Shown here one piece after another: positions 4,940 to 63,423 of a stretch of DNA of 64,000 bases; the stretch's first letter is position 1, and the number at the start of each line of letters is the position of its first letter. The stretch is from an uncultured Acidobacteriia bacterium. Its GTDB lineage: Bacteria > Acidobacteriota > Terriglobia > Bryobacterales > Bryobacteraceae. The DNA lies in NCBI GenBank assembly GCA_903828455.1, contig CAIKMJ010000036.1, forward strand, positions 35,973 to 99,972. Direction: 5' to 3'. The position numbers and the translations under genes were made by a program. A model generated the notes under the pieces. It worked only from the letters and a program-made list of their open reading frames with translations. It was not told the DNA's origin and did not search any database.

Positions 4940-5056
4940 CTTCCGGGGCGCCGAGCGGCCTCCCTGCCCCGCCGCGCGCCGCCCGTGTGCAGCGGTTACA
5001 ACGGCGTCACGGATTGTGGGAGAATGATTACCGCTGCCGCGAGTCAGCCCTATTCT

Positions 5057-6232
5057 ATGAAACACACCGTCCGTGCCACCATGCTGAAATCCAGCATCGC
5101 CATAGCCGCACTTTTCGTCGCCCCGCTGGCGATGCACGCCCAGAAGGCGCCCCAGTGGAAGGTCGATCCGTTCTGGCCCAAGCCGCTGCCGAACAAGTGG
5201 TCGACGCAGCAGATTGTCGACATCTCGGTCGACAAGAACGACCACATCTGGATGATCAACCGCGACGAGCCGAAGCCGGATGAACTCGGCGCTTCCACCA
5301 CGCCGCCGCGCGCCGAATGCTGCGTGCTCGGACCGGAGATCATTGAGTTCGCGCAGGACGGCACGGTGCTCCGTTCGTGGGGCAAGAAGGAATACGTTCC
5401 CGGCTGGCCCAAGCATCTGCAGAGCATGATCGTGGATCCGGAAGGCAACGTCTGGATCTCCGGCACCGAGCCGGGCGACAGCATTCAGAAGTTCGACGGC
5501 AACGGCAAGCTCCTCTGGGACTTCGGCCATCGCTGGCCGAAGGACACGCCGATCAAGCAGGACAACCAGCGGACCGACCTGCTGATGGGCATTGAAGACT
5601 TCGAACTCGACTACGCCAACAAGGAAATCTACGTCAACGACGGAGCCCGCAACAAGCGCATTCTGGTGTTCGACATGAACACCGGCGCCTTCAAGCGCGG
5701 CTGGGGCGGCCACGGCGTGCCGCTCAGCGAGATCGACAACGACCCGACGCCGACCTACGACATCTCCGGTCCGCCGCCGGATTCCAAACAGTTCGTACAG
5801 GTGCTGCACACCATTCACCTTTCAAAAGACGGCCTGCTCTACATCGGCGAGCGCGGCGCGGATCGCGTTTCGGTCTACACCACACAGGGCAAGTTCGTCA
5901 CCAGCTGGTTCGTGCATCCTTCCACGCAGGCGCGCGGCGCCAACTGCGGCGGCCCGTTCGGCACCACCGCCGGCCCCTGCGGCACCATCTTCAACATGGC
6001 GTTTTCGGCCGACAAGGAACAGAAGTACCTGCTGGTGGCCGACGGCACCAACAACATGGTGTGGGTCTACGAACGCAAGACCGGCAAGCTGGTCAACTCG
6101 TTCGGCGGCAACGGCCGCTACGCCGGCCAGCTGCACTGGATCGACACCATCGCGACGGACTCGAAGGGCAACATCTACACGGGCGAAGTCGAAGACGGCA
6201 AACGCATCCAGAAGTTCGTCCTGCAGAAGTAG
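5057..6232 (+). CDS. secreted NHL-repeat / six-bladed beta-propeller protein (PAL-like)
   Basis: ORF 4985..6232. ATG at 5057 gives the signal peptide MKHTVRATMLKSSIAIAALFVAPLAMHAQ. Repeated D..GN.W/Y..D/E motifs (DPEGNVWISG, DSKGNIYTGE) are typical of NHL blades. Confidence 0.7.
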   Translation: MKHTVRATMLKSSIAIAALFVAPLAMHAQKAPQWKVDPFWPKPLPNKWSTQQIVDISVDKNDHIWMINRDEPKPDELGASTTPPRAECCVLGPEIIEFAQDGTVLRSWGKKEYVPGWPKHLQSMIVDPEGNVWISGTEPGDSIQKFDGNGKLLWDFGHRWPKDTPIKQDNQRTDLLMGIEDFELDYANKEIYVNDGARNKRILVFDMNTGAFKRGWGGHGVPLSEIDNDPTPTYDISGPPPDSKQFVQVLHTIHLSKDGLLYIGERGADRVSVYTTQGKFVTSWFVHPSTQARGANCGGPFGTTAGPCGTIFNMAFSADKEQKYLLVADGTNNMVWVYERKTGKLVNSFGGNGRYAGQLHWIDTIATDSKGNIYTGEVEDGKRIQKFVLQK

Positions 6233-6258
6233 CCCGGTTTTCAAAAGCAGCCCGGTTT
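6223..6258. repeat. 18-bp x2 imperfect tandem duplication of the gene 3' end (gcagaagtagcccggttt / tcaaaagcagcccggttt)
   Basis: Read directly. The first copy contains the last two codons plus the TAG stop (6230-6232) of the NHL gene. The second copy follows immediately, 15/18 identical, with TAG changed to CAG. Confidence 0.7.
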
Positions 6259-6260
6259 GC

Positions 6261-7067: not shown

Positions 7068-7733
7068 ATGGATGCACAGCGTCTTCTCTTAGCCGGACTC
7101 CTCACGCTCGCCACGGGCGGCGGCCTGCTTCACGGGCAGACGGGTCAGCCACTGACAGGCGAGGCGTTTCTGCGCGACGCCATCAACACGAAAGCGGTCA
7201 CCACCTACTTCGATCCGCCGGCGCGGCACAGCGACACCAAATGGGAACTGGTGAAGCTGGAAGCCTGCCAGGTGGAGCTGAAAGAGACCTGGCACCGCGA
7301 GTCGCCGAACTCGGTCTTCCTTGCCCGCGAGATGCTGAGCCGGGTGGAAGACAGGACCACGACGTACACGTTCGACCTGCGTCTGCTGCGCCGCGACGAG
7401 ATCATGGCGGACACCTCAACGGGTCTGGCGCAAATCAAGATCTTCGCCGACGCCGATCTGTTCCATGTAAAGACAGACACGGTTTCGACGGCGCTGCGGG
7501 CGGATGGCTCGGTTGCGGACAGCACGGCATGGACGATGCCCGGCCACACGCGCAACCTCTGGATCTACTTCGATTCGCCGGAAGCGGATAACAAAGCCCT
7601 GGTGCGGCGCGTTGCGGCCGAACTGCAGGCCGCCGCCGACAAGTGCCTGCCGCCGGTCACGGTACTGCCGAAACGCTCACCAAAGATGGAAGTAGCCGCC
7701 GCGCTGCGTCAGCTCACAGGGAACCCCAAATAG
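7068..7733 (+). CDS. hypothetical secreted protein
   Basis: 221 aa. Signal-like MDAQRLLLAGLLTLATGGGLLHG and balanced composition. The 3' end overlaps the convergent ABC gene by 57 nt. Confidence 0.55.
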   Translation: MDAQRLLLAGLLTLATGGGLLHGQTGQPLTGEAFLRDAINTKAVTTYFDPPARHSDTKWELVKLEACQVELKETWHRESPNSVFLAREMLSRVEDRTTTYTFDLRLLRRDEIMADTSTGLAQIKIFADADLFHVKTDTVSTALRADGSVADSTAWTMPGHTRNLWIYFDSPEADNKALVRRVAAELQAAADKCLPPVTVLPKRSPKMEVAAALRQLTGNPK

Positions 7734-8474
7734 TTCCTGCAGGCGTTCGCCGGTGAGCATTTCGTTTTTCGGACCGTCGGCCACAATCCCGCCGCCGCGC
7801 ATCATAATGACGCGATCGATCTCCGGAATGATGTCGGAGAGCTGATGCGTTACGAGCAGAATCCCAATTCCTGAGTTGGCCAGCTTGCGGACCATTTCGC
7901 GCAGTTCGTGCTGGGCGAAAAGGTCGAGACTGGTGGACGGCTCATCGAGCAGCAGAGCGCGCGGGCCGTGCACGAGGGCGCGGCCGATCATCATGCGGCG
8001 GGCTTCGCCGGACGACATTTCCTCCACCGGTTTTTCGGCCAGATGGTTGGCTTCGAGCAGGGCGATGACCTCGTGGGCCTTCTGCCGCATCTCTTCGGTG
8101 ACCTCATGGTTGGGCCAGATGCCGATGCTGGAGAAGAAGCCGGAGAGCACGATGTCGAAGCCGTTGATTTCGCGCGTACACATGGTCATCAGCTCGTTGG
8201 AGACGATGCCCATCATGGAGCGGAGTTCGACGACGTTCCAGCGGCTGCGGCCGAGGATGGAAATGGAGGCTTCCTTGCGCGCCAGCGGATAGCATTCGCG
8301 GGTGATGGTCTTGATGAGCGTCGATTTGCCGCAGCCGTTGGGGCCGAGGATGGCGACGTGCTCGCCGGCGCCGATGGTGAGGCTGACTTCGCGCAGGGCG
8401 AGCGTGAGGCCGCGCATGACGGAGACGCGGCGCATATCGAGAAGAGGCGTTGAATCGGGAGGAGTTGAGTCCAC
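7677..8474 (-). CDS. ABC transporter ATP-binding protein (stand-alone ATPase, ModF/YlmA-like)
   Basis: C-terminal 265 aa of ORF 7677..8954. Walker A GPNGCGKST, signature MSSGEARR, Walker B LLLDEPS, and H-loop VTHQ. GTG at 8474 is preceded by GGAGA. An alternative ATG lies at 8435. The upstream part of the ORF is repeat DNA. Confidence 0.85.
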   Translation of the reverse strand: MDSTPPDSTPLLDMRRVSVMRGLTLALREVSLTIGAGEHVAILGPNGCGKSTLIKTITRECYPLARKEASISILGRSRWNVVELRSMMGIVSNELMTMCTREINGFDIVLSGFFSSIGIWPNHEVTEEMRQKAHEVIALLEANHLAEKPVEEMSSGEARRMMIGRALVHGPRALLLDEPSTSLDLFAQHELREMVRKLANSGIGILLVTHQLSDIIPEIDRVIMMRGGGIVADGPKNEMLTGERLQELFGVPCELTQRGGYFHLW

Positions 8475-8539: not shown

Positions 8540-8780
8540 CGATTTCGAATCGAAAAAACGAACCCACCGCCCGCATCGCGCACGGGGGCTGTTCGGGTTT
8601 GGCGCGGAGCGTGGACGGGCCGCGCTTCGGCACCGCGATTTGAAAAAACGAACCCATGTTTCGGATCGCGCACGGGGGCCGTTCGGGTTTGGCGCGGATC
8701 GTGGACGGCCGCTCGTCGCCACCTCGAATTGAAAAAACGAACCCAAGCTCCCGCAACCTCCGACTCGAATAAACGAAGCC
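8540..8780. repeat. 89-90-bp tandem repeat, about 2.7 copies, each starting gaaaaaacgaaccc
   Basis: The gaaaaaacgaaccc anchors sit at 8552, 8642 and 8731 (periods 90 and 89). Copies 1 and 2 share cgcgcacggggc(t/c)gttcgggtttggcgcgga(g/t)cgtggacgg. A degenerate aaacgaagcc lies at 8771. Confidence 0.85.
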
Positions 8781-9057: not shown

Positions 9058-9136
9058 CAAGGACAGAGTAAAAGGACTACGAGGACAACCAATGAGAGGA
9101 CAAGCAACGAATGGACAACCAATGAAAACGGGGAAG
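9058..9136. repeat. periodic GGAC(A/T)A array (5-6 GGA motifs, mostly 13-15 nt apart)
   Basis: GGA at 9061, 9074, 9083, 9098, 9113 and 9132. ggacaaccaatga occurs twice (9083, 9113). The minus-strand reading gives repeated UUGUCC / CCUC motifs immediately upstream of the 9015-9045 hairpin. Confidence 0.7.
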
Positions 9137-11090: not shown

Positions 11091-11246
11091 GAATCCTCTT
11101 TCAATCCGCAAAAATCGCGGTACTATTAGGGTACGGCTGTCTGATGCCGCTGTCTGCTACCTTGCCCGCCTTTTGCTCACATTCCCGGCCGAGATTAGCT
11201 TTTGATGACCAAGCCTGCCTTTGGGGCAGTTAGAAGGAGTATTGCG

Positions 11247-11612
11247 TTGAAGAATATTTATGTCGGGAACGTTTCGTTCCGGACCACCGAACAGGACATC
11301 GAGGCTCTTTTCGCCGCGTATGGACAAGTTGAAAGAGTACAGATTGTGAAGGACCGCGAGACCGGGCAGTCGCGCGGGTTTGCCTTCGTGGAAATGCCGG
11401 GCGACGCGGAAGCGGACAAGGCGATTGCAAGTCTCAATGGTGCAGAACTCGGCGGGCGCACGCTGACAGTGAACGAAGCTCGTCCGCGCGAACCGCGCAC
11501 GGGCGGCGGCGGGTTTGGCGGCGGCGGCGGCAACCGTTACGGCGGTGGTGGCGGCGGCGGCCGTGGTGGCTCGGGCGGCGGCGGTGGCCGTTCGCGCGAA
11601 CCGCGCTGGTAA
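11247..11612 (+). CDS. glycine-rich RNA-binding protein (single RRM domain)
   Basis: TTG start 7 nt after GAAGGAG. RNP2 IYVGNV and RNP1 RGFAFVEM are present. The C-terminal tail is rich in Gly and Arg. Confidence 0.9.
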
Positions 11613-11640
11613 CAAACTCCTTTCATTTCAAAGTAATAAG

Positions 11641-11680: not shown

Positions 11681-11816
11681 CCGGACAGCGGGAGGGGCCC
11701 AGGGGTACTGGCTTTTGCGGCCCGCGAGGCGGCAGTACCGCGTGGGACTCAAACGCGCCCGGGGCGCTGGACTGTCCGTCGATCTGCCTTCAGGATGTTT
11801 AAGAGGAGGCAAATCC

Positions 11817-13332: not shown

Positions 13333-14730
13333 CTACTGAAAAAGCGCGCTGAAGTGCTTTTCCTTGACCTTGAAAAACTTGATCTGTGTCGATCCGGTCA
13401 CGGTGATGTAGAACTCTCGCTTGCTGTCCTGCCCGCGGAGCCGTTCGACATCGGGCATCAGAAACGAAGCAACACCGGTCGAAAAATTGGCCGACCGCAG
13501 GGCGCTGTTTGTTGTGACCGATCCATTTTCCAACTGAACCGGCTGCACGATGTCCTGGCGCGTGGTGTCGGTGATAACGATCCTATGGACTGACGAGGAA
13601 ATGGCGAAGCCGGAGCCGTTGAGATACTCGGGCGTGCTGGGCATGGCAACGACGTGAAGCATTTTTACGCGCATGTCGGCAGTTACGCTTGCGACGGTAA
13701 ATGGCAACATTTCGCGACTGGCGTTAACGGCCATTTGTTCGATCCACTGCTGGGGCGAGTAGACGAAGATGGTGTATCCGGATACGGCGCTTTGACGAGC
13801 GCAGGCCGCGCAGTGAGAGTTCGAGACTGCGGCAGTGAGCGCCGAGCCCCACACCGTCTCCTGGTCATTCAGCATTAATCCGATGCGGCGGTGCGGGTTC
13901 AGCCGGGCCTTCGCGATAGCGGCGGCGACTTCGGCGTCGGTCAGCATGTCCGGGCCGTATTGGGGGGATGCAGCCGGGTCGAGCGGCGGCGCCGCAGCAA
14001 TCGAGGTCTCAGACGGATACGGCCTCGGCGGTTCCCAGCCTACCGGCGCACTGATACCGGACCCGGTGAACGAGTTGACCGCGGGCCCGACAACAGGTGT
14101 GGGAGAGACAGATTCGGTCCGATGAATCGGCGCAGTGGCAACCGGTGCGACCACGGCAGGTGCGTTTACGGCGGGCGAAATGGCGGTCGGCGCAACTGCG
14201 GTGGGCGCAACTGCGGTGTGCGCAACTGCGGTGTGCGCAATGGCGATGTGCGCAATGGCGGTGGGCGCAATGGCAGCGGGTGCAACTGCGGTGGACGCAA
14301 TGGCAGCGGGTGCAACGGCGGTGGGCGCAATGGCAGCGGGTGCAACTGCGGTGGACGCAATGGCAGCGGGTGCAACGGCGGTGGGTGCAATGGCAGCGGG
14401 TGTCTGGGGCAGGACGGCGGGAACTGAAGCGGCAGACGAGGAGATTGCGGCAGCCGTGGCGATGGGCCCCATGTTGTTGGCACGGTCGCGCATGACATTG
14501 ATAATTTCCTGCGCATCATGCTTCGACGCGCCGGAGATGATCAGTTCATTGAATGTCGCGTCACCAATCGTCAACGATATCAGCGGCGCATTTTTGATGG
14601 CCTGGGCAATCATTTCGACAGGAACCGCACCACGGACCATGGCCCGAATCGTCTGATTGGTCATCATGCCGGACTGGGCCGGCGACAGGGCCGCACCCAT
14701 CAGAATCAAAGCTGCGATAGCACTTTTCAA
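13333..14730 (-). CDS. secreted protein with Ala/Pro/Thr pentapeptide-repeat linker
   Basis: 465 aa. Signal peptide MKSAIAALILMGAALSPAQS. The central section is (A/T)(A/V)(A/I)AP-type repeats, and the C-terminal about 220-aa domain is unrecognised. Confidence 0.7.
   Translation of the reverse strand: MKSAIAALILMGAALSPAQSGMMTNQTIRAMVRGAVPVEMIAQAIKNAPLISLTIGDATFNELIISGASKHDAQEIINVMRDRANNMGPIATAAAISSSAASVPAVLPQTPAAIAPTAVAPAAIASTAVAPAAIAPTAVAPAAIASTAVAPAAIAPTAIAHIAIAHTAVAHTAVAPTAVAPTAISPAVNAPAVVAPVATAPIHRTESVSPTPVVGPAVNSFTGSGISAPVGWEPPRPYPSETSIAAAPPLDPAASPQYGPDMLTDAEVAAAIAKARLNPHRRIGLMLNDQETVWGSALTAAVSNSHCAACARQSAVSGYTIFVYSPQQWIEQMAVNASREMLPFTVASVTADMRVKMLHVVAMPSTPEYLNGSGFAISSSVHRIVITDTTRQDIVQPVQLENGSVTTNSALRSANFSTGVASFLMPDVERLRGQDSKREFYITVTGSTQIKFFKVKEKHFSALFQ
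14176..14402. repeat. intragenic 15-bp tandem repeat (about 15 units) with a 60-bp higher-order repeat
   Basis: Units such as gcaactgcggtgggc / gcaatggcagcgggt are read directly. The block 14266-14325 recurs at +60 nt. It encodes the AIAPTAVAPA repeats of the 13333..14730 protein. Confidence 0.9.
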
Positions 14731-17475: not shown

Positions 17476-17520
17476 GCTGGTTCTCCGTGGATCGAAATCA
17501 GACTTTCCATTCTATGCCTG

Positions 17521-17735
17521 TTGGGCGGGCAGCGGTTGGGATGCCGGTGGGCGGGCAGCGGGGTCGCGGGGCTCGGGGTTGGGCGGGATCGCGGGGCGGG
17601 TGTGGCGCCACGGTCGGGGCCGCGTGGGAGGGGCGGGTGCGGGTTGCGAGTGCCGCGTGGGCGGGGCGGGTGTGGCGTCGCGAGTGTCGTGTGGGCGGGA
17701 CGGATGCGGGTATTCCGCGGGCTGCTCACGGGAAT
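17521..17735 (+). repeat. extreme G-tract region (more than 25 runs of GGG/GGGG on the + strand) in a divergent promoter region
   Basis: Read directly, for example GGGGTCGCGGGGCTCGGGGTTGGGCGGG and GGGAGGGGCGGGTGCGGG. ggggcgggtgtggcg occurs twice (17593, 17663). Confidence 0.85.
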
Positions 17736-17802
17736 TGCGGCAGGCAGTCGGGCGTGAAATAATAGCGTGAACCTATTCCGTTTTGTCCCGGAAGAGAAAC
17801 GA

Positions 17803-26794: not shown

Positions 26795-26838
26795 AAAAGA
26801 GCGGCGTCACCGGTTGCAGCCGGCGGCGCCGCTCTTTT
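26795..26838. terminator. bidirectional terminator between convergent genes
   Basis: aaaagagcggcg (26795-26806) pairs with cgccgctctttt (26827-26838). The A-run/T-run flanks allow function on both strands. Confidence 0.7.
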
Positions 26839-26860
26839 GGTTTCTGGTGGGTGTTTGCGG

Positions 26861-26924
26861 TCTACTTCATCTAGTTTCTACTTCAACTCTTTTCTACTTC
26901 AACTCTTTTCTACTTCAACTCTTT
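26861..26924. repeat. 16-bp x4 tandem repeat (tctacttcaactcttt) copying stop codon plus last four codons of the MBL gene
   Basis: Three perfect copies at 26877-26892, 26893-26908 and 26909-26924, plus a degenerate tctacttcatctagtt at 26861-26876. The last copy holds the real stop (cta, 26910-26912) and the codons for KELK. Confidence 0.95.
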
Positions 26925-27785
26925 CATGAGGCCCTGCAGGCTCCACTGTTCCTGCAACGAGCCTTTCTTCCAGTTGAACTCGGTGGCCATGACCTGGAAC
27001 AATTCGTCGGCGCTCTTGCCGCCGCGCACGAGGCCCTGCGCGCGCGTCCGCAGCTTCTCCACCATGTTGCGGTATTCCTGGAGGCTGGCTTTCGTGGTCA
27101 CGGCGCCGTGACCGGGGATGACGGTATCGAAATCGAGCGAGGAGAGGACCTTGTCGAGCGTCTTCGTCCATTCGATGACGCTGCCGCCGCCGGGATAGTC
27201 GATGAGCGGGGTGTTGCCGGACATGAGATCGCCGGTGTGGACGACCTTCAGCGCGGGGAAATAGATGACCGCGTCCGTATTGGTGTGGCCGCGCCCGTAG
27301 AATTTCGCGCGAACTTCCTTGCCGCCGAGGAAGACGGACATTTCATCGTTGAAGGTAATGGTGGCCGGCTGGACGTCGGGCGCCGCCATGTTGGACTGCA
27401 CCTTGTTCAGGATGTTCAGGCGCGCCTGCTGGGTGGAAATGATCTGCGCGGTGCCGAGGAATTTGCCGTTGCCGCCGCTGTGGTCCTGATGATAGTGCGT
27501 GCTCAGGATGTACTTGACGGGCTGGCTGGTGACGGATTTGATGTTGGCGAGAATCTGGTCGTGGTCGGCATCGAACTTGTCGTCTACCAGAATGACGCCT
27601 TCGCTGGTGATGTAGACGGCCACGTTGCCGCCGTCGCCTTCGATCTCATAGAGATCTTCTTTGACTTTGTTGATTTTGAGCTGCGAGGGCGGGGCCTGCG
27701 TGTAGGCCAGCCATCCGGCAAAAAGGAACGAGACAACGGCGAGGGAGCGCGCAACGGTCTTCCGGGTCATGGAAAAGCGATTCAT
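26910..27785 (-). CDS. secreted MBL-fold metallo-hydrolase
   Basis: 291 aa. Signal or anchor segment, STHYHQDHSGG (HxHxDH), and a later GHG. Confidence 0.85.
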   Translation of the reverse strand: MNRFSMTRKTVARSLAVVSFLFAGWLAYTQAPPSQLKINKVKEDLYEIEGDGGNVAVYITSEGVILVDDKFDADHDQILANIKSVTSQPVKYILSTHYHQDHSGGNGKFLGTAQIISTQQARLNILNKVQSNMAAPDVQPATITFNDEMSVFLGGKEVRAKFYGRGHTNTDAVIYFPALKVVHTGDLMSGNTPLIDYPGGGSVIEWTKTLDKVLSSLDFDTVIPGHGAVTTKASLQEYRNMVEKLRTRAQGLVRGGKSADELFQVMATEFNWKKGSLQEQWSLQGLMKELK

Positions 27786-30146: not shown

Positions 30147-30468
30147 AGAGCGGACTTCGGAAAAGCGGGCCGGGAAGAAATGACCGGTGCGCGGCTGGCA
30201 CTTTTACTGGCCGCGCGTTCGAGGATTCCGTGCGGATGCTGACGGCGATCGCGGCCCGTTCGCAACCACCCGGCGCGCCGAGGTGCCGCTACCTGAAACA
30301 TTCCATTGCGCCGGAGAAACGCGCTTCGATGCCCGATGCGGCAGACGACGGTTGCCGCTGCAACTTCCATTAACGGAACCTTTAAGATCGAAGCCGTGAA
30401 GCATTTTCGAGGCGTATAATTTCAACATCCGGGAAGGCGAAACGGAAATTTGCAACAGGATTGAATGG

Positions 30469-30942
30469 ATGAAACTACGATTGATTGTTGTCTCCGCGAT
30501 GATGGCCGCCACGATGTTCGCCCAGGGCGGAGGCGCTGGTAAAAAGGGAGGCGGCAAGGATGCACCGCCGGCACCGGTCGACACGGCCGCGGCAGTTGAG
30601 CACGACGTGGCGTTCCTGACCAAGTATTTTGCGCTGGACGCTTCGCAGGTCGCGAGGATCACCGACATTGTGAAGAACGAGCAGCGCTGCCTCGCGCCGG
30701 CCGCCGCCGACATCAAGCGCGAAACCGAAGCCATGCTGAAGGCGATGCGGGATCAGATGAACAGCAACCTGTCCGATGCCATTTCACGGCACGCGAAGGC
30801 GGAAGAATCCGCCACCGTTTGCCGCGGCGAGGCAGTGGGCGCGATTTACAAGCAACTGAACGACGCCCAGATTGCGAAGATCAAGGACGGTCTGGTGCCG
30901 CTGATGAGCGGCACGGACAATCGCTTCGGTCCGCGCCAGTAG
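30469..30942 (+). CDS. hypothetical periplasmic helical protein (Spy/CpxP-like composition)
   Basis: 157 aa. Signal peptide MKLRLIVVSAMMAATMFAQ, then a helical, charged sequence. No firm family call. Confidence 0.5.
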   Translation: MKLRLIVVSAMMAATMFAQGGGAGKKGGGKDAPPAPVDTAAAVEHDVAFLTKYFALDASQVARITDIVKNEQRCLAPAAADIKRETEAMLKAMRDQMNSNLSDAISRHAKAEESATVCRGEAVGAIYKQLNDAQIAKIKDGLVPLMSGTDNRFGPRQ

Positions 30943-30980: not shown

Positions 30981-31010
30981 AAAAGGCCCCGACGTTTGCC
31001 GGGGCCTTTT
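30981..31010. terminator. bidirectional terminator between convergent genes
   Basis: aaaaggccccg (30981-30991) pairs with cggggcctttt (31000-31010), with an 8-nt loop. Confidence 0.75.
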
Positions 31011-31030: not shown

Positions 31031-31141
31031 GATCGCGCGAACTTAGATTCGCGCCGTCTTCGATTCGCGCGAGCTTAGATTCGCGCGAGCTTAGATTCGC
31101 GCGAGCTTCGATTCGCGCGAGTTTAGATTCGCGCGATGAGC
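31031..31141. repeat. 16-bp x7 tandem repeat (gattcgcgcgagctta) copying the pckG stop codon plus last codons
   Basis: Units at 31031, 31046, 31062, 31078, 31094, 31110 and 31126. The last unit is the coding end (LIARI) and the real stop tta is at 31123-31125. Six units contain the 8-bp palindrome TCGCGCGA. Confidence 0.95.
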
Positions 31142-32970
31142 AGTTCCCGCTCGTAGATGATTTCGGGCGGCAGATGATCGTGCAGATCGAGGAACAGCTC
31201 CTCGTGGCCGATGACTTCCTGACGCCACGCCTGCGGGTCGAAGCGCTGGAGTTCGTCAAAAGAAGCCTTATCGAAGCCCATGCCGGTCCACTCGATGTCT
31301 TCGTGGCGCGGCATCCAGCCGATGGGCGTTTCCTTGGCCTTGGCGCGGCCGTGCGCGCGGTCGACGATCCACTTCAGCACGCGCATGTTCTCACGGAAGC
31401 CGGGCCAGATGAACCTGCCGTCCTTATCCTTGCGGAACCAGTTGACGTGGAAGATGCGCGGGGTCTCGCTCAGATTGCGCTGCATCTTGAGCCAGTGGCG
31501 GAAGTAGTCGCCCATGTGATAGCCGCAGAAGGGCAGCATAGCCATCGGGTCGCGGCGTACTTTGCCGACGGTGCCGACGGCGGCGGCGGTCATTTCCGAA
31601 CCCATGGTGGCGCCGATATAGACGCCTGAGCTCCAGTTGAAGGCCTGGAAGACGAGCGGCATGGTGGTGGCGCGGCGTCCGCCGAAGATGATGGCGCTGA
31701 TCGGCACGCCGTCGGGATTTTCCCAGGCCGGGTCGATGGTGGGGCACTGCGAGGCCGGCGCGGTGAAGCGCGCGTTGGGATGAGCGGCCTTGGCGCCGGT
31801 CTCCTTCGCGATTTCGGGAGTCCACTTCTTGCCCTGCCAGTCGAGGCACTCGGCGGGCGGCGCGTTGGTCATGCCTTCCCACCACACGCCGCCTTCGGGC
31901 GTGAGGCCGACGTTGGTGAAGATGGTATTGCGCGCCAGCGAGGCCATGGCGTTGGGATTGGTCTGGTGCGAGGTGCCCGGCGCGACGCCGAAGAAGCCGG
32001 CTTCCGGGTTGATGGCGCGCAACTGGCCGTCTTTGTCGGGCTTGATCCAGGCGATGTCGTCGCCTACCGTCCAGACTTTCCAGCCCTCGAAGCCTTCGGG
32101 CGGCACCAGCATGGCGAAGTTCGTCTTGCCGCAGGCGCTGGGGAAGGCAGCCGCCACGTAGGTCTTTTCGCCGGCGGGATTTTCCACGCCCACGATGAGC
32201 ATGTGCTCGGCCATCCAGCCTTCATCGCGCGCAATATTGGAAGCGATGCGCAGCGCGAAGCACTTCTTGCCGAGCAGCGCGTTGCCGCCGTAACCGGAAC
32301 CGAACGACCAGATCTCGCGCGTCTCCGGGAAGTGAACGATGTATTTTTCCTTGTTGCACGGCCAGACCACATCCTTCTGGCCGTCGGCGAGCGGCATGCC
32401 GACCGAGTGCATGCACGGCACGACGCGTTTGAAGTCCTTGTCGATTTCGGCGAAGACCGGCACGCCGATGCGGGCCATGATCCGCATGTTGACCACGACG
32501 TAGGGCGAATCGGTCAGCTGCACGCCGATCTGCGACATGGGCGAGCCGATGGGTCCCATGCTGAAGGGCAGCACGTACATCGTGCGGCCTTTCATGCAGC
32601 CGTGAAAGAGCCGCTTCAGCGTGCGGCGCATTTCGGCGGGCGGCTCCCAGTTGTTGGTGGGGCCGGCGTTGTCCTTCGCCAGGGAGCAGATGAACGTGCG
32701 GTCTTCCACGCGCGCGACATCGCTCGCGTCCGAGCGGGCGTAAAAGCATCCCGGCCACAAATCCTGGTTCAGGCGAATGAATGTACCGGCCGCGACCATC
32801 TGTTCGCAGAGATCGTCGTATTCTTCGCGCGAACCATCGACCCAGTGGATGGCCGCGGGCTGGGTGAGCTGCGCCATCTTATCGACCCAGCGCTGCAGAT
32901 GCTTGTTGCGGCTCAGAGGAACCGCGGGGTCACGCTTTTCCGATTTGGTTGTGGTTGACATGATGGGCAC
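31123..32970 (-). CDS. pckG: phosphoenolpyruvate carboxykinase (GTP)
   Basis: 615 aa, full-length collinear with GTP-PEPCKs. Motifs seen: FPSACGKTN kinase-1a, WMAEHMLI, and GDDIAWI. Start is GTG 32970 or ATG 32961. Confidence 0.93.
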
Positions 32971-41792: not shown

Positions 41793-41948
41793 GCGTTCCT
41801 CTGATGTTAACGCGACGGGTCGGGGAGGCGGGGGGAGATCATGCGCGGAGATCATGCGCAGAGATCACGCGCGGGCGGGGCGGGCGGCGGCGCCCGGAAT
41901 TTCCAATGCGGCCTTCAATGGGAAGTGCCGGTGCCCGCCATCCGCCGC

Positions 41949-44482: not shown

Positions 44483-44554
44483 TTCCCCAATTCCAAGAAC
44501 CTCCCTAATTCCAAGAATCTCCCTGATTCCGATAACCTCGTTTCCCTCGCCGCC
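44483..44554. repeat. 18-bp tandem repeat x3-4 (ctccctaattccaagaat) in a 620-bp non-coding region
   Basis: ttccccaattccaagaac (44483), ctccctaattccaagaat (44501), ctccctgattccgataac (44519), and a degenerate ctcgtttccctcgccgcc (44537). Confidence 0.85.
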
Positions 44555-52920: not shown

Positions 52921-54561
52921 TCATTTGTGAGGCCGCTTTTTCGCGGCCGCCTTGGGAGTCGGGGAAGCGTCGGCAGTGGAAGCTGCCGGGGACGCGGAGG
53001 CCGCGGATGCCGCCGGGCTGGCCGGGGAAGCTGCAACCGCCGGGGCCGTGCCGCCGGACGGGGACGCTGCATTGTTGGCCGGAGCTGAGGCGCCCGGTGC
53101 AGTCGGGGCGCCGGCTGCGGCGGGCGTCGCAGACGGGTCGGGAAGCGCACCGATCGGCTCCAGCTGGTAGCCGGTTCGTCCGCGAACGGCCCCCAGATCG
53201 AGCGTAACGGTCACTCGTTCCGACTTTCGCTTGTACTGATAGGCGCCGGCCAGAAGCTTCGTCGAATCGAGCGTGATGGTGTTCAGTTCCCCGCCATCGT
53301 TGATCAGCAACTCGCCGCGGTCGATACCACGGGTGGCCTGCGAGTTCCAGCGAATCTCCATGTCGCCGTTCGAATCGGTCGAAGTCATGGCCAGCGGCGG
53401 GCGCGGCATCCACATATCGCGCGTCAGAAAAATTCCGCCGCCACCCAGCAGGATAACGATCAGCGCAATCGCCGCCCACAGCGCACGCCGTTTGCCGGCT
53501 TGCGCCGCGGGCATCCGGGGTGCCGGAGAAGAAGCCGCACGAGCACCGGCCGGCGCAGAGGAGGGTCGAGGGTTGGTAACCAGGTTCGGATGCGCCGTCT
53601 GGGGACGCGCGGCAGCGGGCTCCTCGTCCAGTTGCGCGAAAAGGCCGGCCGTGATAAACGACGGCCGGGCCGCGGGCTTCGTCGACGCCGGTTGGGGGGC
53701 CACGGGTTGCGGGGACACGGGTTTGGGAACAGCGGGCGGCGGGGAGTCGCGCTGGACCGCACTTCGCGGTTCGAGCCGGGGCATTTCGGTCACTGGCGGA
53801 GGCGCGAAACTGAAGTCTTCCTCTTCAACCGCGGGCCGGTACGCAGCGGGCGGCGGGGGCGTGGCCTGCGCCGGAGCATGGTGTGACTGTATGGGTTGTG
53901 ACTGTATGGGTTGTGAATGTATGGGTTGTGAATGTATGGGGTGCGACTGTATCTGGCCCGACTGCGGCATCGGCATGACACCGGCCGGAGGATTTGCCAG
54001 CACCTTTGAGATCGCATCGAGCCGCGCAGCGACATCCCGCTGAGTCTTTTCGAGATCCGGCGGATTCCAGTCCCAGAGATCCTGCGACGTGCCCGCCTGC
54101 AAGGTGCCATTCTGACGAAAAAAGAAGGCCGCCTTGGCCACTTCGCCGGGGGCCGGCCGCACGACGAAGGCCACCTGCCAGGGCTCGGGACACAACAGGT
54201 CGAAGAGTTCACGTTCCGGGCCGCCGAGCGCGACCGGACCCCGCGTCCGCGTGCAGTAAAGACCGACGACGCCGCGATGCGATCCGGCATCCTTCAGCGC
54301 CTGCATGCTCTGGCGGATTTCGTCGGGAGTGAGCTGAAACGTCGGCCCGAGCGAATGCGAGCAAGGCAGTTCGATGGCACCGGTGATGCGAATGCCGGCG
54401 GCGGTTCTTTCACCGACCAGCAGCCCGCCGACGCCCATCCCGACGCGCGGCAGCGCAATGAGCCCGTCAGCTGCCCGCTGCCGGACGCGCTCAAGAGCGG
54501 CACACAGGTAGTCCACCGTAAACGGTAACGCCGGGTCCAGCCATACGGCCATCTCTGTCAT
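52921..54561 (-). CDS. single-pass membrane protein with N-terminal MPN/JAB-like (non-catalytic) domain, Pro-rich linker and extracytoplasmic domain
   Basis: 546 aa. N-terminus resembles the MPN fold (GLLVGE..; VVGLYCTRTRG where JAMM enzymes have HSHP). QPIHS repeats, TM LWAAIALIVILLGGGGIFL, and an Ala/Pro/Ser-rich basic tail. Confidence 0.6.
   Translation of the reverse strand: MTEMAVWLDPALPFTVDYLCAALERVRQRAADGLIALPRVGMGVGGLLVGERTAAGIRITGAIELPCSHSLGPTFQLTPDEIRQSMQALKDAGSHRGVVGLYCTRTRGPVALGGPERELFDLLCPEPWQVAFVVRPAPGEVAKAAFFFRQNGTLQAGTSQDLWDWNPPDLEKTQRDVAARLDAISKVLANPPAGVMPMPQSGQIQSHPIHSQPIHSQPIQSQPIQSHHAPAQATPPPPAAYRPAVEEEDFSFAPPPVTEMPRLEPRSAVQRDSPPPAVPKPVSPQPVAPQPASTKPAARPSFITAGLFAQLDEEPAAARPQTAHPNLVTNPRPSSAPAGARAASSPAPRMPAAQAGKRRALWAAIALIVILLGGGGIFLTRDMWMPRPPLAMTSTDSNGDMEIRWNSQATRGIDRGELLINDGGELNTITLDSTKLLAGAYQYKRKSERVTVTLDLGAVRGRTGYQLEPIGALPDPSATPAAAGAPTAPGASAPANNAASPSGGTAPAVAASPASPAASAASASPAASTADASPTPKAAAKKRPHK
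53881..53955. repeat. intragenic 15-bp x5 tandem repeat (ttgtgactgtatggg)
   Basis: Units at 53881, 53896, 53911, 53926 and 53941. They encode QSHPIHSQPIHSQPIQSQPIQSH on the minus strand. Confidence 0.9.
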
Positions 54562-55252: not shown

Positions 55253-56407
55253 ATGACGCGACGCTTTATCCTTTTTCTGTTTGCGGCCACGCTGGCGGCG
55301 CAGGCCGATCCGCACTGGGACGTCCAGTTCGAATACAAACAGGACGATGCGGTTCTGACCATCAACGACTTCGCCATGCTGCCCTCGGCGAACGGCGTGG
55401 CGCAGCGCGGCATTGCGTGCGGCTACGCCACCGACCATCGCAATAAGCAGCGGCCGCTGGTGCTGCTTACGATCGATGGCGGCGCGCACTGGACCGAAAC
55501 TGCCGTACACGAAACGGGCCTGTCGCTTTTCTTTCTCGACGACACAACGGGCTGGATGGTGACGGCGACCGGCGTGTGGCAGACCAGCGAAGCCGGCCGC
55601 AACTGGACCAGAAAAGTGAAAGCGCCGGGCGGTCTGACGCGGGTCTGGTTCCTCGACCGCAGACGCGGCTACGGCATCGGCAGCGAGCGCCGCATTTTCG
55701 AAACGATTGACGGCGGCGATTCGTGGATTCTGCTGCCCGGCGTGAAAGAGGTGGAGAGCGACCAGCGGACGACGACGTTCGGCGAGATTGCCTTCACCGG
55801 CAAGGCGGGCATCATTGCGGGCTGGAGCACGCCCGTGCGCTCGACGCCGCCAGTGACGGCGGCGACGGGGAGCGGCGGGACGAAGAGCGAACCGCCGCGC
55901 CAGACTCCGGCTTATTCGGTGATGCTGCAGACCGTGGACGCAGGGCAGACGTGGAAGAAATCCGACGCATCGCTGTTCGGGCAGATCACGCGAATCAGCA
56001 TGGCGCCGCAGGGCACGGCGCTGGGGCTGATCGAGTTCCGCGACAGGTTCGATTATCCGAGCGAGGTGTACAGCATCGATCTGCATACCGGCAAAAGCGA
56101 GCGGGCCTTCCGCGCGATGGACCGTGCGATTACCGACGTGCGGCTCTTCCGCGGACTTTCCACGGGCGTCATCGCCGGATATGAGACGCCGGGCGCGGCA
56201 GACCGGACGGGCGGCGCGGGCGGCCTGAGCCGGGTTCTCGTGCCGGGGAAACTGAAGGTGCTGATCAGCGAGGATCTGGCGCACTGGGACGAGATGTCGG
56301 TGGACGCGCACGCGGTGGCGCGTCGCGCGATGATCTCCGGGCCGGATCCGGATCATTTATGGATCGCGACGGATACGGGGATGATCTTGAGGCTGGTGCT
56401 GGAATAG
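55253..56407 (+). CDS. secreted Ycf48/BNR-like beta-propeller protein
   Basis: 384 aa with a signal peptide. Repeated S/T-x-D-G-G-x-x-W motifs (TIDGGAHWTE, TSEAGRNWT, TIDGGDSWIL, TVDAGQTWKK). Confidence 0.75.
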   Translation: MTRRFILFLFAATLAAQADPHWDVQFEYKQDDAVLTINDFAMLPSANGVAQRGIACGYATDHRNKQRPLVLLTIDGGAHWTETAVHETGLSLFFLDDTTGWMVTATGVWQTSEAGRNWTRKVKAPGGLTRVWFLDRRRGYGIGSERRIFETIDGGDSWILLPGVKEVESDQRTTTFGEIAFTGKAGIIAGWSTPVRSTPPVTAATGSGGTKSEPPRQTPAYSVMLQTVDAGQTWKKSDASLFGQITRISMAPQGTALGLIEFRDRFDYPSEVYSIDLHTGKSERAFRAMDRAITDVRLFRGLSTGVIAGYETPGAADRTGGAGGLSRVLVPGKLKVLISEDLAHWDEMSVDAHAVARRAMISGPDPDHLWIATDTGMILRLVLE

Positions 56408-56437
56408 CAGGTTCTGGAATAGCAGGTGCTGGAATAG
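56393..56437. repeat. 15-bp x3 tandem repeat (c(t/a)ggtgctggaatag) copying last four codons plus TAG stop
   Basis: ctggtgctggaatag (56393-56407, includes the real TAG at 56405-56407), caggttctggaatag (56408-56422), caggtgctggaatag (56423-56437). Confidence 0.95.
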
Positions 56438-56501
56438 CTGGCACCGATTGAGCAAGCGGGCGGCAGTGGGTTAGACTGAAAGCAGTTCGCCCGCCTGCAA
56501 T

Positions 56502-56575
56502 TCCCCGGTCGTCTAATGGTAGGACAGCGGCCTTTGACGCCGTGAATCGAGGTTCGAATCCTTGCCGGGGAGCCA
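56502..56575 (+). tRNA. tRNA-Gln (anticodon TTG), CCA encoded
   Basis: Hand-folded. Acceptor TCCCCGG/CCGGGGA, D arm GTCT-AATGGTA-GGAC, anticodon arm GCGGC-CTTTGAC-GCCGT (anticodon TTG). T arm CGAGG-TTCGAAT-CCTTG, then discriminator G and CCA. Confidence 0.93.
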
Positions 56576-56576
56576 T

Positions 56577-56830
56577 ACGTTTTGTGGTGGAAATGTTTTA
56601 TTGCAATTCGGTTGACCGCAGCACTTTTCCCCTCCCCCTGTAACCCCAACATTCCAAAGACTTCCGCATTTTCGGGTTCTCTCCGGTTTGAAACTCTGCT
56701 TCTCGATTTACGAGCTAAACCCCGGGGGTTGAGTTCGGCCCCCCATGTTTTCGGCATCAAACTCTCAGTTTTCTCTGTTGACAGGAAGCCTTTGTTGACG
56801 GCCCCGTCCAACGCGGGGTAACCGTCGTTA
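56577..56830 (+). repeat. direct repeat copy A (about 250 bp, block-wise conserved with copy B)
   Basis: Blocks shared in the same order with copy B: ggtggaaat, tcggttgac(c/a)gcagc, acattcc, g(t/c)ttgaaactc, aaccccgg, gttcggcccccc. Also ttttctctgttgacagg, tttgttgacggccccgtc, and taacc. Confidence 0.8.
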
Positions 56831-56850
56831 CATTTTTCAAACCGATGATT

Positions 56851-58074
56851 TCATTGCGTTTCTTCGGACGGTTCTGGCTGCTGCTTGAGCAGCACCTTGA
56901 TCATTTTCGTTCGATGATCGTAGCTGAGCCTTTCGACGAATTCCGGAATCTCCCTCAAATTGATATGATCTCGCCCGTCAACTGGTTTCCGAAGCCGTAT
57001 TTGTCGACAAACGGCCGCTTCAATCTGACCTGCCGAAACCTGGCCCCGACACGGCTTCCTGCCCCCAGCGGTGGACCGGCACCGGTAGTAGCAATAGGTG
57101 ATGCGACCATGGCGAACGGTGTGGGGCGTCATGGGTCGATCGCAGACCGCGCACAGGATCAGGCCTTTCAGCGGCCAGATGTCTCCATACGAAACCGCGT
57201 CCGATGCCCGCGTCCTGCGCGAATCAAGCTGCTGACCAACCGCGTCGAAAACCTCTCGGGTGATCAGGGGTTCATGGCAGCCGGGGCGGGTACCGGATCC
57301 CGACCGAAACCCGCCGGTATAGACAGGATTCCGGAGTGTCGCCAAAACCTGTCGCGCCGTCCAGGGGTTGCCACCGAATTTCGGGATGTAACGCCCTTCG
57401 GTTTTCACTTTGGTCCTGGATCCTTTGTCGTTGGCTTGTTCAGCGATATCCGCCGGCACCTTTCCGACGGCCGCCTGCGAGAACATCCACTTCACGATCT
57501 CCGCCTCATCCTGCAGCGGAACCAGCTGTTTGGTGTACACATCGGTCGTGTAGCCGAAAGGCACAGCGCCGGCGATTCGTTGTCCCCGGGCTTTCAGTCT
57601 TGTGCGGGACTCAGCGATTCTCGAGGCAATCATCTCCCGTTCGAACTCGGCGAAGGAAGCCAGGATGTTGAGCATCAGGTTATCCCCCGCAGCATCCCCG
57701 AGTTCCGGTGCCGTCACGATGACCAACCGGACACCGTGGCTGCGAAGTTCTTCGAGCAAGGTGGCGGACTTGATCAGGCTGCGAGCCAGTCGGTCCATCC
57801 GATAAATCACGACTGCGTTTACAGCGCGGCGAGCAACCAGCTCTCTGAGTCGAGTGAGCGCAGGGCGGTCGAGCGTAGCGCCTGAATAACCGTCATCGTC
57901 GAAACGATCCGCGACGAGAAGCCACCCCAACTCACGCATCGAGTGAACGTATGCCGCGCAAGACTGGTACTGGATTTCGCAGGAAGAGATGTCATCGTCC
58001 GACGAGGCTGACTGCCTGGTGTAAATGGCACAGACCGTGAACTGCCGCGTCGTCGGTCCGGTTTTCCGCTGCAT
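56851..58074 (-). CDS. large serine recombinase (resolvase catalytic domain plus recombinase domain plus zinc ribbon)
   Basis: 407 aa. N-terminal AIYTRQSAS (catalytic Ser region), YRMDRLARS, recombinase domain, and Cys-rich CAVCDRPM...YYRCRS...KPC zinc-ribbon. Confidence 0.85.
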
Positions 58075-58154
58075 CCGTTCCCATCATCTTCCATGTGAGG
58101 GCTTGCTCCCCTTTCGCGGGCCGGACAAAGCTATCCTGCAATAGGAACGTCTCA

Positions 58155-59204
58155 GTGCCGCTGCAGCCTAAATTTCGGATCACCAACGCCATCGCGGGGA
58201 ACCTGACCCGGATTGAACGCGCGCGAGGTTTTCTGGATGCCGCGAGGCTCTCCGAGGACTGGATCGCCGGGATGCAGCAGCGGGCTTTGGTACTCGAGGC
58301 GCATCACACGACGCACATCGAAGGCACCCACCTGACGCTCGACCAGTCCGAACGTCTGCTCGCGGGCGAGAAGCCCGACGGCGTGAAGGCCGACGACGCC
58401 AAAGAAGTTACGAATTACCGGAAAGCAGTTGACCTGGTCGCGGACTATCTGGGCAGTGGTGATCCGGTCACCGAAGGTCTGATTCGCGAAATCCATAAGC
58501 GGCTGGTCCGCGGCGTGCGAGGGAATGCGGCCGCGCCCGGTGAGTATCGCAAGATTCAGAACTACGTGGCGAATTCGCTCACGAAAGAGGTCATATACAC
58601 GCCGCCTGCACCGCAGGAAGTTCCGCCGCTGATGGCGGAGTTCGTCTTATGGCTGAATGCGGAGCAGGATGTGCATCCGATCCTCGTAGCCGGAATAGCG
58701 CAGTTTCAGCTCGTCCACATTCATCCGTTTCTGGACGGCAACGGCAGGACGGCGCGGTTACTGTCGATGCTCTGCCTGTATCGCAAAGGCTACGATTTCA
58801 AGCGGCTGTTCACGCTGAGCGAATACTACGATCGCGACCGCCCCAGCTACTACCGGGCTATTCAGAGTGTGCGAAAACGCGATCTTGATCTGACCGAATG
58901 GCTGGAGTACTTCACTTTCGGCTTGCAGTGGCAACTGGCCGAAGTGCAGGAGAAGGGCGAGACGCTCATCCGCATGGATGTTCTCGCAAAAAAACATAAG
59001 CTGTCGGCCCGGCAAATAGTGGCGCTCGAACTGGCCCAGCAGGGCGCTACATTCCAGATGCAGGATTTCGAAGCCCGATGCCCGGGAGTGCACCGGCGCT
59101 CACTGCAGCGTGATCTCCGGGAACTTGTCGATGCCGGCCTGCTCGAAGTAACGGGTGCCACGAACCGTCTGGTTTACATGGCCCCGGGCAGTCGCCAAAA
59201 CTAG
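58155..59204 (+). CDS. Fic-family protein (AMPylase-type) with N-terminal inhibitory motif and C-terminal winged-helix domain
   Basis: ORF 58095..59204. GTG 58155 follows AGGAA, with an alternative GTG at 58095. Fic motif [16 protein letters not shown], inhibitory (S/T)xxxE(G/N) as TTHIEG, and a C-terminal wHTH-like [14 protein letters not shown]. Confidence 0.85.
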
Positions 59205-59268
59205 CGACAAGCTTGCGACACAACTAGCGACACACTTGCGACACAACTAGCGACAAACTTGCGACAGG
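59191..59268. repeat. 23-bp x3 (11-12-bp sub-unit x6) tandem repeat starting in the last codons and stop of the Fic gene
   Basis: gtcgccaaaactag (real TAG at 59202-59204), cgacaagcttgcgacacaactag (59205-59227), cgacacacttgcgacacaactag (59228-59250), cgacaaacttgcgacagg (59251-59268). Confidence 0.9.
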
Positions 59269-63328: not shown

Positions 63329-63423
63329 CGCGCGTCCGGGTGCTTTTCTTCCGAAACAGGCGCATACAGCGGCGGTGCCTGAAACAACCTCTCAACCTCT
63401 CACCGCACCCGCAGTAATCTGCG

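Follow-up and report, generated by a model that had tools for sequence, protein, structure and literature searches.

Strain-variable short tandem repeats overlapping stop codons in an uncultured, Acidobacteriota-like bacterium

Introduction

The MIRU minisatellites of Mycobacterium tuberculosis, reportedly described in 1997 by Supply and colleagues, are said to be intergenic repeats of variable number whose ends overlap the flanking stop and start codons. They reportedly form one dispersed family, with units of 40-100 bp located inside operons. REP and BIME elements also belong to dispersed conserved families; these are imperfectly palindromic, lie in 3' intergenic DNA, often between convergent genes, and can form hairpins in 3'-UTRs.

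Two other systems involve repeats that take in the end of a gene. The genome of Yersinia pestis has 88 VNTRs, including 24 in ORFs, all with units divisible by three, and 16 that overlap ORF boundaries (Li et al. 2013, PLoS One, PMC3689786). Ten of these 16 hold the stop codon, with units mostly of 16-19 bp, and the authors considered that a change of copy number at stop-containing VNTRs matters little for the ORF (PMC3689786). The repeats of Borg elements are pervasive, evolve fast, arise independently of each other, and in some cases have their first unit in a gene end (Schoelmerich et al., bioRxiv 10.1101/2022.05.18.492195; PLoS Biol 2023, PMC9879509). Within ORFs their units are invariably multiples of three, and Borg repeats are enriched in A and have no common secondary structure (PMC9879509). 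At a broader scale, tandem repeats were generally enriched in intergenic DNA across the 5374 prokaryotic genomes of one survey (PMC12418385).

In the literature, we found no dedicated description of stop-overlapping arrays for Acidobacteria. Here, we analyze a stretch of 64 kb, hereafter the window, in which a first-pass annotation had pointed to arrays of short repeats at the ends of several genes and had stated that it was aware of no described mechanism for them. Given the stop-containing VNTRs of Y. pestis and the gene-end repeats of Borg elements, this statement is outdated. The sections below describe the arrays, their variation between strains and their placement, and compare them with these systems.

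Sequences and definitions

Arrays were counted when TRF gave a score of at least 50, a period of 10-40 and at least 2.5 copies. We compared two strains that are about 99% identical. Strain A is represented by the window together with ENA ERZ18668442 and Logan ERR4194719, and strain B by JGI 3300021142 and ENA ERZ27271897. The genomic context is bacterial, with housekeeping genes such as pckG, cytochrome b/Rieske, rnr, ftsY and IDH, and the nearest relatives are MAGs of Acidobacteriota. In our scans of genome and metagenome contigs, the relatives among the matches listed were at 84% identity or less.

The array at the end of pckG

The gene pckG (31123-32961, minus strand) encodes a GTP-dependent PEP carboxykinase of 612 aa, as indicated by its translation and by Pfam matches (PEPCK_N, PEPCK_GTP) of the identical protein in other assemblies. 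Its homologs reach up to 90% identity. The ORF terminates in ...LLIARI*, the coding strand ending in ...CTC ATC GCG CGA ATC TAA, and this terminus is part of a 16-bp tandem array at 31033-31136 on the minus strand (TRF, sequence and unit positions). TRF reports a period of 16, 6.5 copies, 87% matches and a score of 159. The array first described as seven copies is thus real, and its count is six full units plus a half unit.

The periodicity begins 11 nt 5' of the stop. Unit 1 (TCGCGCGAATCTAAAC; 31121-31136, minus strand) is the true gene end, in line with the first-pass annotation: it contains the last 11 bases of sense codons (three codons and two bases), then the genuine stop (TAA, 31123-31125) and 2 further nt. 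The following units, 2-6, extend from 31105 down to 31041 on the same strand (sequence, unit positions). Read on the coding strand, unit 2 ends in ...ATCGAAGC (...CGAAGC), units 3 and 4 both end in ...ATCTAAGC (...CTAAGC), unit 5 ends in ...ATCGAAGA (...CGAAGA), and unit 6 is CGGCGCGAATCTAAGT. A partial unit of 8 bp, TCGCGCGA, occupies 31033-31040 on the minus strand. The copied triplet had been read as TAA at +32, +48 and +80 and as GAA at +16 and +64, and this is what the sequence contains.

The six occurrences of the octamer TCGCGCGA within the array were also found as described. This palindrome is encoded by the pckG codons Ile-Ala-Arg, and outside the array it occurs as single copies at 7 scattered sites. 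Folds of both RNA and ssDNA predict the pairing of adjacent units, as had been proposed, and MFE folds recover the proposed terminator hairpin at 30981-31010. The latter is a predicted bidirectional intrinsic terminator, GGCCCCG...CGGGGCC between an A run and a T run. The units of the array lack a U tract and are therefore not themselves an intrinsic terminator; the real one is the separate hairpin at 30981-31010. It is common to pckG and to the neighboring gene 30469-30942 (plus strand, 157 aa, no Pfam match; gene calls on L082/L083 and Pfam search), is conserved in strain B, and has a homologous hairpin in sister species. Since this neighbor is convergent with pckG, the array lies in a 3'-3' junction.

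Other stop-overlapping arrays

The duplication of gene ends is recurrent in the window, with the stop lying within unit 1 at pckG and at the MBL, Ycf48-like and Fic genes (TRF, sequence), and the genes neighboring the arrays were confirmed by Pfam. These four arrays, from the five listed by the first-pass annotation, are solid, whereas the fifth, at an NHL gene, consists of two imperfect copies only. The MBL array (26861-26924, minus strand; TRF, sequence, Pfam) has four copies of a 16-bp unit, AAAGAGTTGAAGTAGA on the coding strand, and spans the stop TAG (26910-26912) of a metallo-beta-lactamase-fold gene at 26910-27770. A bidirectional terminator lies near it, at about 26795-26843. The Ycf48-like array (56395-56438, plus strand; TRF, sequence, Pfam) has 2.9 copies of the 15-bp unit GGTGCTGGAATAGCA and spans the stop TAG (56405-56407) of the gene 55253-56407, after which comes a tRNA-Gln at 56502-56575. 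The Fic array (59199-59266, plus strand; TRF, sequence, Pfam) has three copies of a 23-bp unit, AACTAGCGACAAACTTGCGACAC, which is itself made of two sub-repeats of 11/12 bp, and it spans the stop TAG (59202-59204) of the gene 58155-59204. The TRF match levels of the units are 87-93% in the four stop-overlapping arrays and 80-93% across the noncoding arrays of the window.

The weak NHL case (6224-6259, plus strand; sequence) is made of two 18-bp copies, CAGAAGTAGCCCGGTTTT and CAAAAGCAGCCCGGTTTG, identical at 15/18 positions. They span the stop TAG (6230-6232) of an NHL/SGL propeller gene at 5024-6232, in a convergent junction of 45 bp. TRF does not detect this case even at a score of 30, and taken alone it is near chance level; the sequence is unchanged in the L086 assembly. 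A sixth case was found in that assembly, about 3 kb to the left of the window, at a second NHL-repeat gene (L086 11702-11753, 15 bp x 3.5). Unit 1 has AAG TAC inside the ORF and unit 2 has AAG TAA, which ends the ORF. This gene may have lost its original stop, with the protein lengthened by five residues (YALKK) into unit 2.

Regarding stop codons in general, the 56 gene calls use TAG 24 times, TAA 17 times and TGA 15 times, TGA being the rarest, which is unusual at 63% GC. All six stop-overlapping repeats use TAG or TAA, a bias that is not significant (p about 0.15).

Variation between strains

The exact pckG protein is present in independent assemblies, and the arrays of strain A are identical and gap-free among them. 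A comparison of copy numbers had been proposed as a check of the arrays, and all four solid ones turn out to differ by whole units between the two strains. More precisely, the pckG array has 6 full units in strain A and 3 in strain B (-48 bp, exactly units 4-6 being missing), the MBL array has 4 and 3 units (a 19-bp difference), the Ycf48-like array 3 and 4 (15 bp), and the Fic array 3 and 2 (23 bp). Slippage, as initially suggested, is the likely engine. Over about 41 kb, strains A and B differ by 8 whole-unit repeat indels, 3 other small indels and about 294 SNPs. Hence, the gain and loss of repeats is the dominant indel process.

Assemblers are known to make errors at tandem repeats and the DNA is metagenomic, so we considered that short-read assembly might have made or inflated the repeats, or that an array might have overwritten the true C-terminus of a gene. 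However, the arrays are only 44-104 bp long, below the typical read length, and carry substitutions specific to individual units. Independent samples and assemblers give identical alleles, and the alternative alleles differ by exact multiples of the unit. An assembly artefact was rejected because independent assemblies reproduce the arrays, and overwriting was rejected for pckG and Ycf48 because their homologs share the same C-termini; for the C-termini of the MBL, NHL and Fic genes, no homologs occurred among the loci compared. We regard an artefact of assembly or annotation as extremely improbable.

The four newest unit changes or perfect duplications between strains all lie off stops, at about 30179, at 63385, at L169 13296 and at L169 14456. 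The event at 63385 is an 8-bp duplication, and those of L169 are two perfect two-copy duplications within a strain-B insertion. At about 30165-30185 (L083 7744, L176 12735), strain B has an additional 15-bp unit, GCGGGCCGGGAA[G/C]AA on the plus strand. This unit is 33 nt past the stop of cytochrome b and abuts an ATG (ATGACCGGTGCG...), in a spacer of 322 bp without gene call, which may contain an unannotated small ORF with a duplicated ribosome-binding region.

Larger differences between the strains were also observed. The tRNA-Gln(TTG) at 56502-56575 is followed by a segment of 1.5 kb (56576-58076) that encodes, on the minus strand, a large serine recombinase (56851-58074). The segment is missing from strain B, where the alignment breaks exactly at the 3' end of the tRNA, and it has the appearance of an integrative element specific to one strain. 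The Fic region is 94% identical between strains A and B, against about 99% elsewhere, and strain B has an insertion of 2 kb after Fic (L169 12859-14952) with a Sel1/aspartyl-protease gene and a 76-aa ORF.

Age of the arrays and their distribution in relatives

The arrays are young. Two sister species, whose pckG is 89-90% identical, share the C-terminus (LLIARI* / LLISRI*) but lack any repeat, the gene ends being ...ATCGCGCGAATCTAA|GAGACGCAC... and ...ATCTCGCGCATATAA|GAGAAGCAG.... Homologs of the Ycf48-like protein all stop at the same residue, down to 54% identity. It follows from these ends that the arrays are downstream copies of an older gene end and were born within the species. The units diverge by 7-13%, which makes the arrays older than the split between strains A and B.

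The end of pckG could be located in 155 loci; of these, L115 is the only other contig where a repeat touches the stop, a weak one of 2.3 copies, and a few loci have unrelated heptamer repeats after the gene end. Noncoding arrays of 11-16 bp that abut gene starts or stops were observed at two other Acidobacteriaceae/Terracidiphilus MAG loci (L070 1155-1199 and 15457-15495; L012 223-260 and 6524-6574), and one of them is perfect (11-bp x 4.1). The repeat-prone trait may thus recur in other lineages of Acidobacteriota.

Arrays away from stops and within genes

Some noncoding arrays of the window have no contact with a stop. They are located at 9081, 10588, 17619, 41834 and 44484, to which a 90-bp repeat at 8546 can be added. 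Neither these nor the in-frame coding arrays were in the list of the first-pass annotation. The array at 9081-9125 (15 bp x 3, GAGGACAACCAATGA; TRF, sequence) is in a co-directional spacer of 967 bp. That at 41834-41874 (13 bp x 3.2; TRF, sequence) lies between the stop of rnr (41949) and the start of ftsY (41792), and has the same copy number in strains A and B. The array at 44484-44539 (18 bp x 3.1; TRF, sequence) is in a divergent spacer of 620 bp between rnr and an alcohol dehydrogenase gene.

Within genes, an in-frame array of 15 bp x 4.7 (53882-53952, minus strand; TRF) in the hypothetical protein gene 52921-54561 is polymorphic between strains, which shows the same process at work inside genes under a filter for divisibility by three. 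The robust coding arrays have TRF periods of 15, 21, 27 and 30, all divisible by three; the periods of the noncoding arrays are 13, 15, 15, 16, 16, 18, 23 and 34.

Two hypothetical proteins without Pfam match, encoded on the minus strand at 13333-14730 and 52921-54561, have in-frame repeats of 15/30 bp and 15/27 bp, respectively. The arrays of these two genes are at 14169-14402, 52960-53017, 53690-53723 and 53882-53952, two of which are one unit longer or shorter in strain B than in strain A, and they likely correspond to variable low-complexity or disordered regions. The 90-bp tandem repeat (8546-8745, 2.2 copies) is in a long leader upstream of the ABC-ATPase gene 7677-8435 (minus strand), and its unit has a GC-rich stem and then a T/A run (GAACCCAC...GTTCGGGTT). 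L086 has 2.6 copies of 89 bp at 1-232, at the edge of the locus, and this number is hence not comparable with the 2.2 copies of the window. Finally, the divergent spacer 17476-17766 has G-rich imperfect repeats at 17558-17711, of the GGGGCGGG type with periods of 8 and 34 bp, and a GGC-rich tract occurs at 11502-11592 inside a doubtful ORF (11157-11627). Both tracts are possible G-quadruplex-prone regulatory regions.

Density and placement of the arrays

The window of 64 kb has 12 arrays, of which 8 are noncoding: 4 overlap a stop, 1 overlaps a start, and 3 are in other intergenic positions. In comparison, 2.4 Mb of other loci of Acidobacteriota and Verrucomicrobiota have 39 arrays, 15 of them noncoding (1 stop overlap, 5 start overlaps, 9 other intergenic). 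The density of noncoding arrays is about 20-fold higher in the window than in these loci, and the arrays are certainly more than chance; the enrichment figures given in this section rest on about 68-70 kb of the species, i.e. the window and its flanks.

A uniform model of protein-neutral duplication predicts that 6-11% of the arrays include a stop and sense codons. The observed fraction is 4/10 to 5/9, the latter including L086, which departs from this model with p=0.007 to 0.0004. Stop overlap is also more frequent than in the other loci (1/15, Fisher p=0.015), and the Y. pestis baseline of 10/64 is below the 5/9 found here. Every array that overlaps a stop lies in a convergent 3'-3' junction or immediately precedes a tRNA; such arrays occur at 5/24 of the stops in convergent junctions, against 0/33 of the co-directional ones (p=0.01). 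Folds of the junctions predict strong terminators that leave about 14-32 nt free after the stop, and when a unit of 15-23 bp has to fit such a spacer, the stop is necessarily part of roughly 35-80% of the duplications. Under this null, which was built post hoc from terminators and short free spacers, the excess has a p of about 0.03-0.1. The excess of arrays at stops is thus significant relative to simple nulls (p 0.0004-0.015) and becomes marginal once terminators and free spacers are counted.

Since arrays at stops are more frequent than under the uniform neutral model and than in other genomes, there could be a mutational hot spot, with duplications arising preferentially where translation stops or at convergent 3' ends. 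Possible causes include R-loops on RNA left untranslated once the ribosomes have been released, stalled replication at terminator hairpins or at supercoiled convergent junctions, and easier slippage at the A/T-rich gene ends of a genome with 63% GC. Such a hot spot would be in line with the location of all cases in convergent junctions beside strong terminators. It would also fit base composition: on the coding strand, A makes up 35% of the units vs 18% genome-wide, the gene ends bearing arrays have 34% A vs 25% in other gene ends, and Borg repeats are A-rich too. However, the copies in stop-overlapping arrays start 3-12 nt 5' of the stop and not at the stop itself, short free spacers account for most of the bias, and the same process also acts in genes and in 5' spacers. 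The four newest events, which are unlinked to old arrays, lie off stops, and this argues against a hot spot of birth. The seeding of slippage at termination sites, one of the origins initially put forward, is not needed. We therefore consider it unlikely that duplications are preferentially born at these ends.

Sequence families, RNA structure and copied stops

Within the 64-kb window and allowing up to 2 mismatches, the units of the stop-overlapping arrays, as well as those at 9081 and 44484, match only within their own array; each unit is specific to its locus. The 13-bp unit at 41834 also has scattered single matches. A dispersed repeat family was rejected since units are unique to their own arrays and there is no similarity between arrays. 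A search of the window with Rfam gave only the tRNA-Gln above the gathering score, and no array matches a known RNA family.

The arrays might have been selected for a function in the 3'-UTR, as stabilising stacks of hairpins, spacers between stop and terminator, arrays of sites for proteins or sRNAs, or backup stops. The predicted unit-to-unit hairpins of pckG, which precede its terminator, fold with z=-5.4 when the terminator is included, the arrays have outlived the strain split, and the L086 case at 11702-11753 looks like a stop loss rescued by unit 2. However, the fold of the pckG array alone has a z-score of -1.6 relative to shuffles, and the arrays of MBL (+1.5), Fic (-0.35) and both NHL genes (+2.7 for NHL1, +0.4 for NHL2) fold no better than shuffles; the score of the Ycf48-like array is -2.0. 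A general hairpin stabiliser was rejected on the ground that 4/6 arrays are unstructured. The suggestion of selected 3'-UTR stabilisers made in the first-pass annotation does not fit these folds, nor the presence of a palindrome in the pckG unit only, and the arrays have no structure or motif in common.

The idea of backup stops fares no better. In the downstream units, the copied stop triplets are mutated at 4/42 positions vs 20/195 elsewhere. Copied stops are not conserved, then, and decay at the background rate, and units of 16 and 23 bp put most of them out of frame. Furthermore, copy number has drifted freely between two strains that are 99% identical, and the sister species are without array. 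A selected function in the 3'-UTR is, in our opinion, very unlikely.

Origin and maintenance of the arrays

The reading we favor, with a probability of about 0.7, is that of a lineage with a high rate of slippage-type duplication in which selection determines what survives, such that stop-spanning copies persist at gene ends as protein-neutral insertions fitting the sole harmless space. In this view the arrays are hypermutable minisatellites: short tandem duplications of 8-34 bp would arise and change size very often in the lineage, RecA-independent slippage during replication being the most likely mechanism. Work based on E. coli provides candidates for such proneness to repeats, namely deficiencies in ssDNA exonucleases or in polymerase processivity. 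Selection would then explain placement. Inside genes, only units divisible by three would survive, and in spacers that bear promoters arrays would be kept rare or small. At 3'-3' junctions, the DNA between stop and terminator would be harmlessly extendable and yet short, at about 15-30 nt. The arrays observed in promoter-bearing spacers are indeed few and small, and those that grow are located between stop and terminator, where promoters are absent. Because this free spacer is short, a duplication of 15-23 bp that fits it usually must take in the stop and the last codons. Such a duplication would be protein-neutral because the first copy still provides an intact gene end and stop, and the later copies would be additional 3'-UTR ahead of the terminator. 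At pckG, the palindrome TCGCGCGA could stabilise slipped hairpins, and it may account for this array being the longest.

Two observations fit less well with this slippage-and-selection reading. The share of stop overlaps (5/9) exceeds that of the uniform model, of the other loci and of Y. pestis, and becomes unremarkable only after a restriction introduced post hoc. In addition, the units of the stop-overlapping arrays are 87-93% identical and outlived the strain split, something pure neutrality allows but does not predict. A more far-reaching interpretation is that duplications are nucleated at the end of translation in convergent junctions, by slippage associated with R-loops, terminators or supercoiling, or that arrays are kept as tuners of the spacing between stop and terminator. 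Gene ends would then be a hot spot of 3'-UTR and C-terminal evolution. The second NHL gene of L086, whose ORF now extends into unit 2, is a hint in this direction, and we find this interpretation quite unlikely.

The arrays show that short tandem repeats which change fast can reach Borg-like densities in a free-living, uncultured bacterium, and the placement of repeats would be a readout of the sites at which insertions are tolerated in a compact genome. The arrays can readily serve as high-resolution strain markers for the population in lake metagenomes, and they may occasionally remodel C-termini. A true genome-wide excess at stops, if confirmed, would point to an unrecognised link between the termination of translation or transcription and replication slippage.

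Comparison with known systems

The arrays have the features of VNTRs, or bacterial minisatellites: head-to-tail units of at least about 10 bp, variation between strains by whole units, and a unit specific to each locus. MIRUs differ in two respects. They form one family, whereas here the unit differs from array to array and comes from the local gene end, and they are located between co-directional genes of operons, whereas the arrays described here are at 3'-3' junctions or before a tRNA. Unlike in REP and BIME elements, a palindrome is present in the pckG unit only, where it derives from the gene's own codons, and no unit recurs elsewhere.

The arrays resemble Borg repeats in their fast evolution, their independent origins, their enrichment in A, the lack of a common secondary structure, and the periods, which are divisible by three within ORFs but not always in intergenic regions. 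However, Borg repeats are perfect (100%), whereas identity is 80-93% in the noncoding arrays and 87-93% in the stop-overlapping ones described here. Borg repeats are carried by giant archaeal linear elements and are largely absent from the host genome, whereas these arrays are in a bacterial chromosome. The placement in convergent junctions was not analyzed for Borgs.

The stop-overlapping VNTRs of Y. pestis are similar in having locus-specific units, the stop within the repeat, copy numbers that vary between strains, and units divisible by three in ORFs. As expected for arrays of this type, the stop is in unit 1 and the ORFs are intact, with C-termini that are ancestral for pckG and Ycf48. 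The differences concern frequency, with 10 loci in 4.65 Mb (10/64 of the non-ORF VNTRs) in Y. pestis vs 5-6 in about 68 kb here, about half of the noncoding arrays, as well as the link with convergent junctions, which was not reported in Y. pestis, and the host, which is here Acidobacteriota-like. Hence, the kind of array is already known, and what is new is the host, a density of stop-overlapping arrays roughly 40-fold that of Y. pestis, and the link with convergent junctions.
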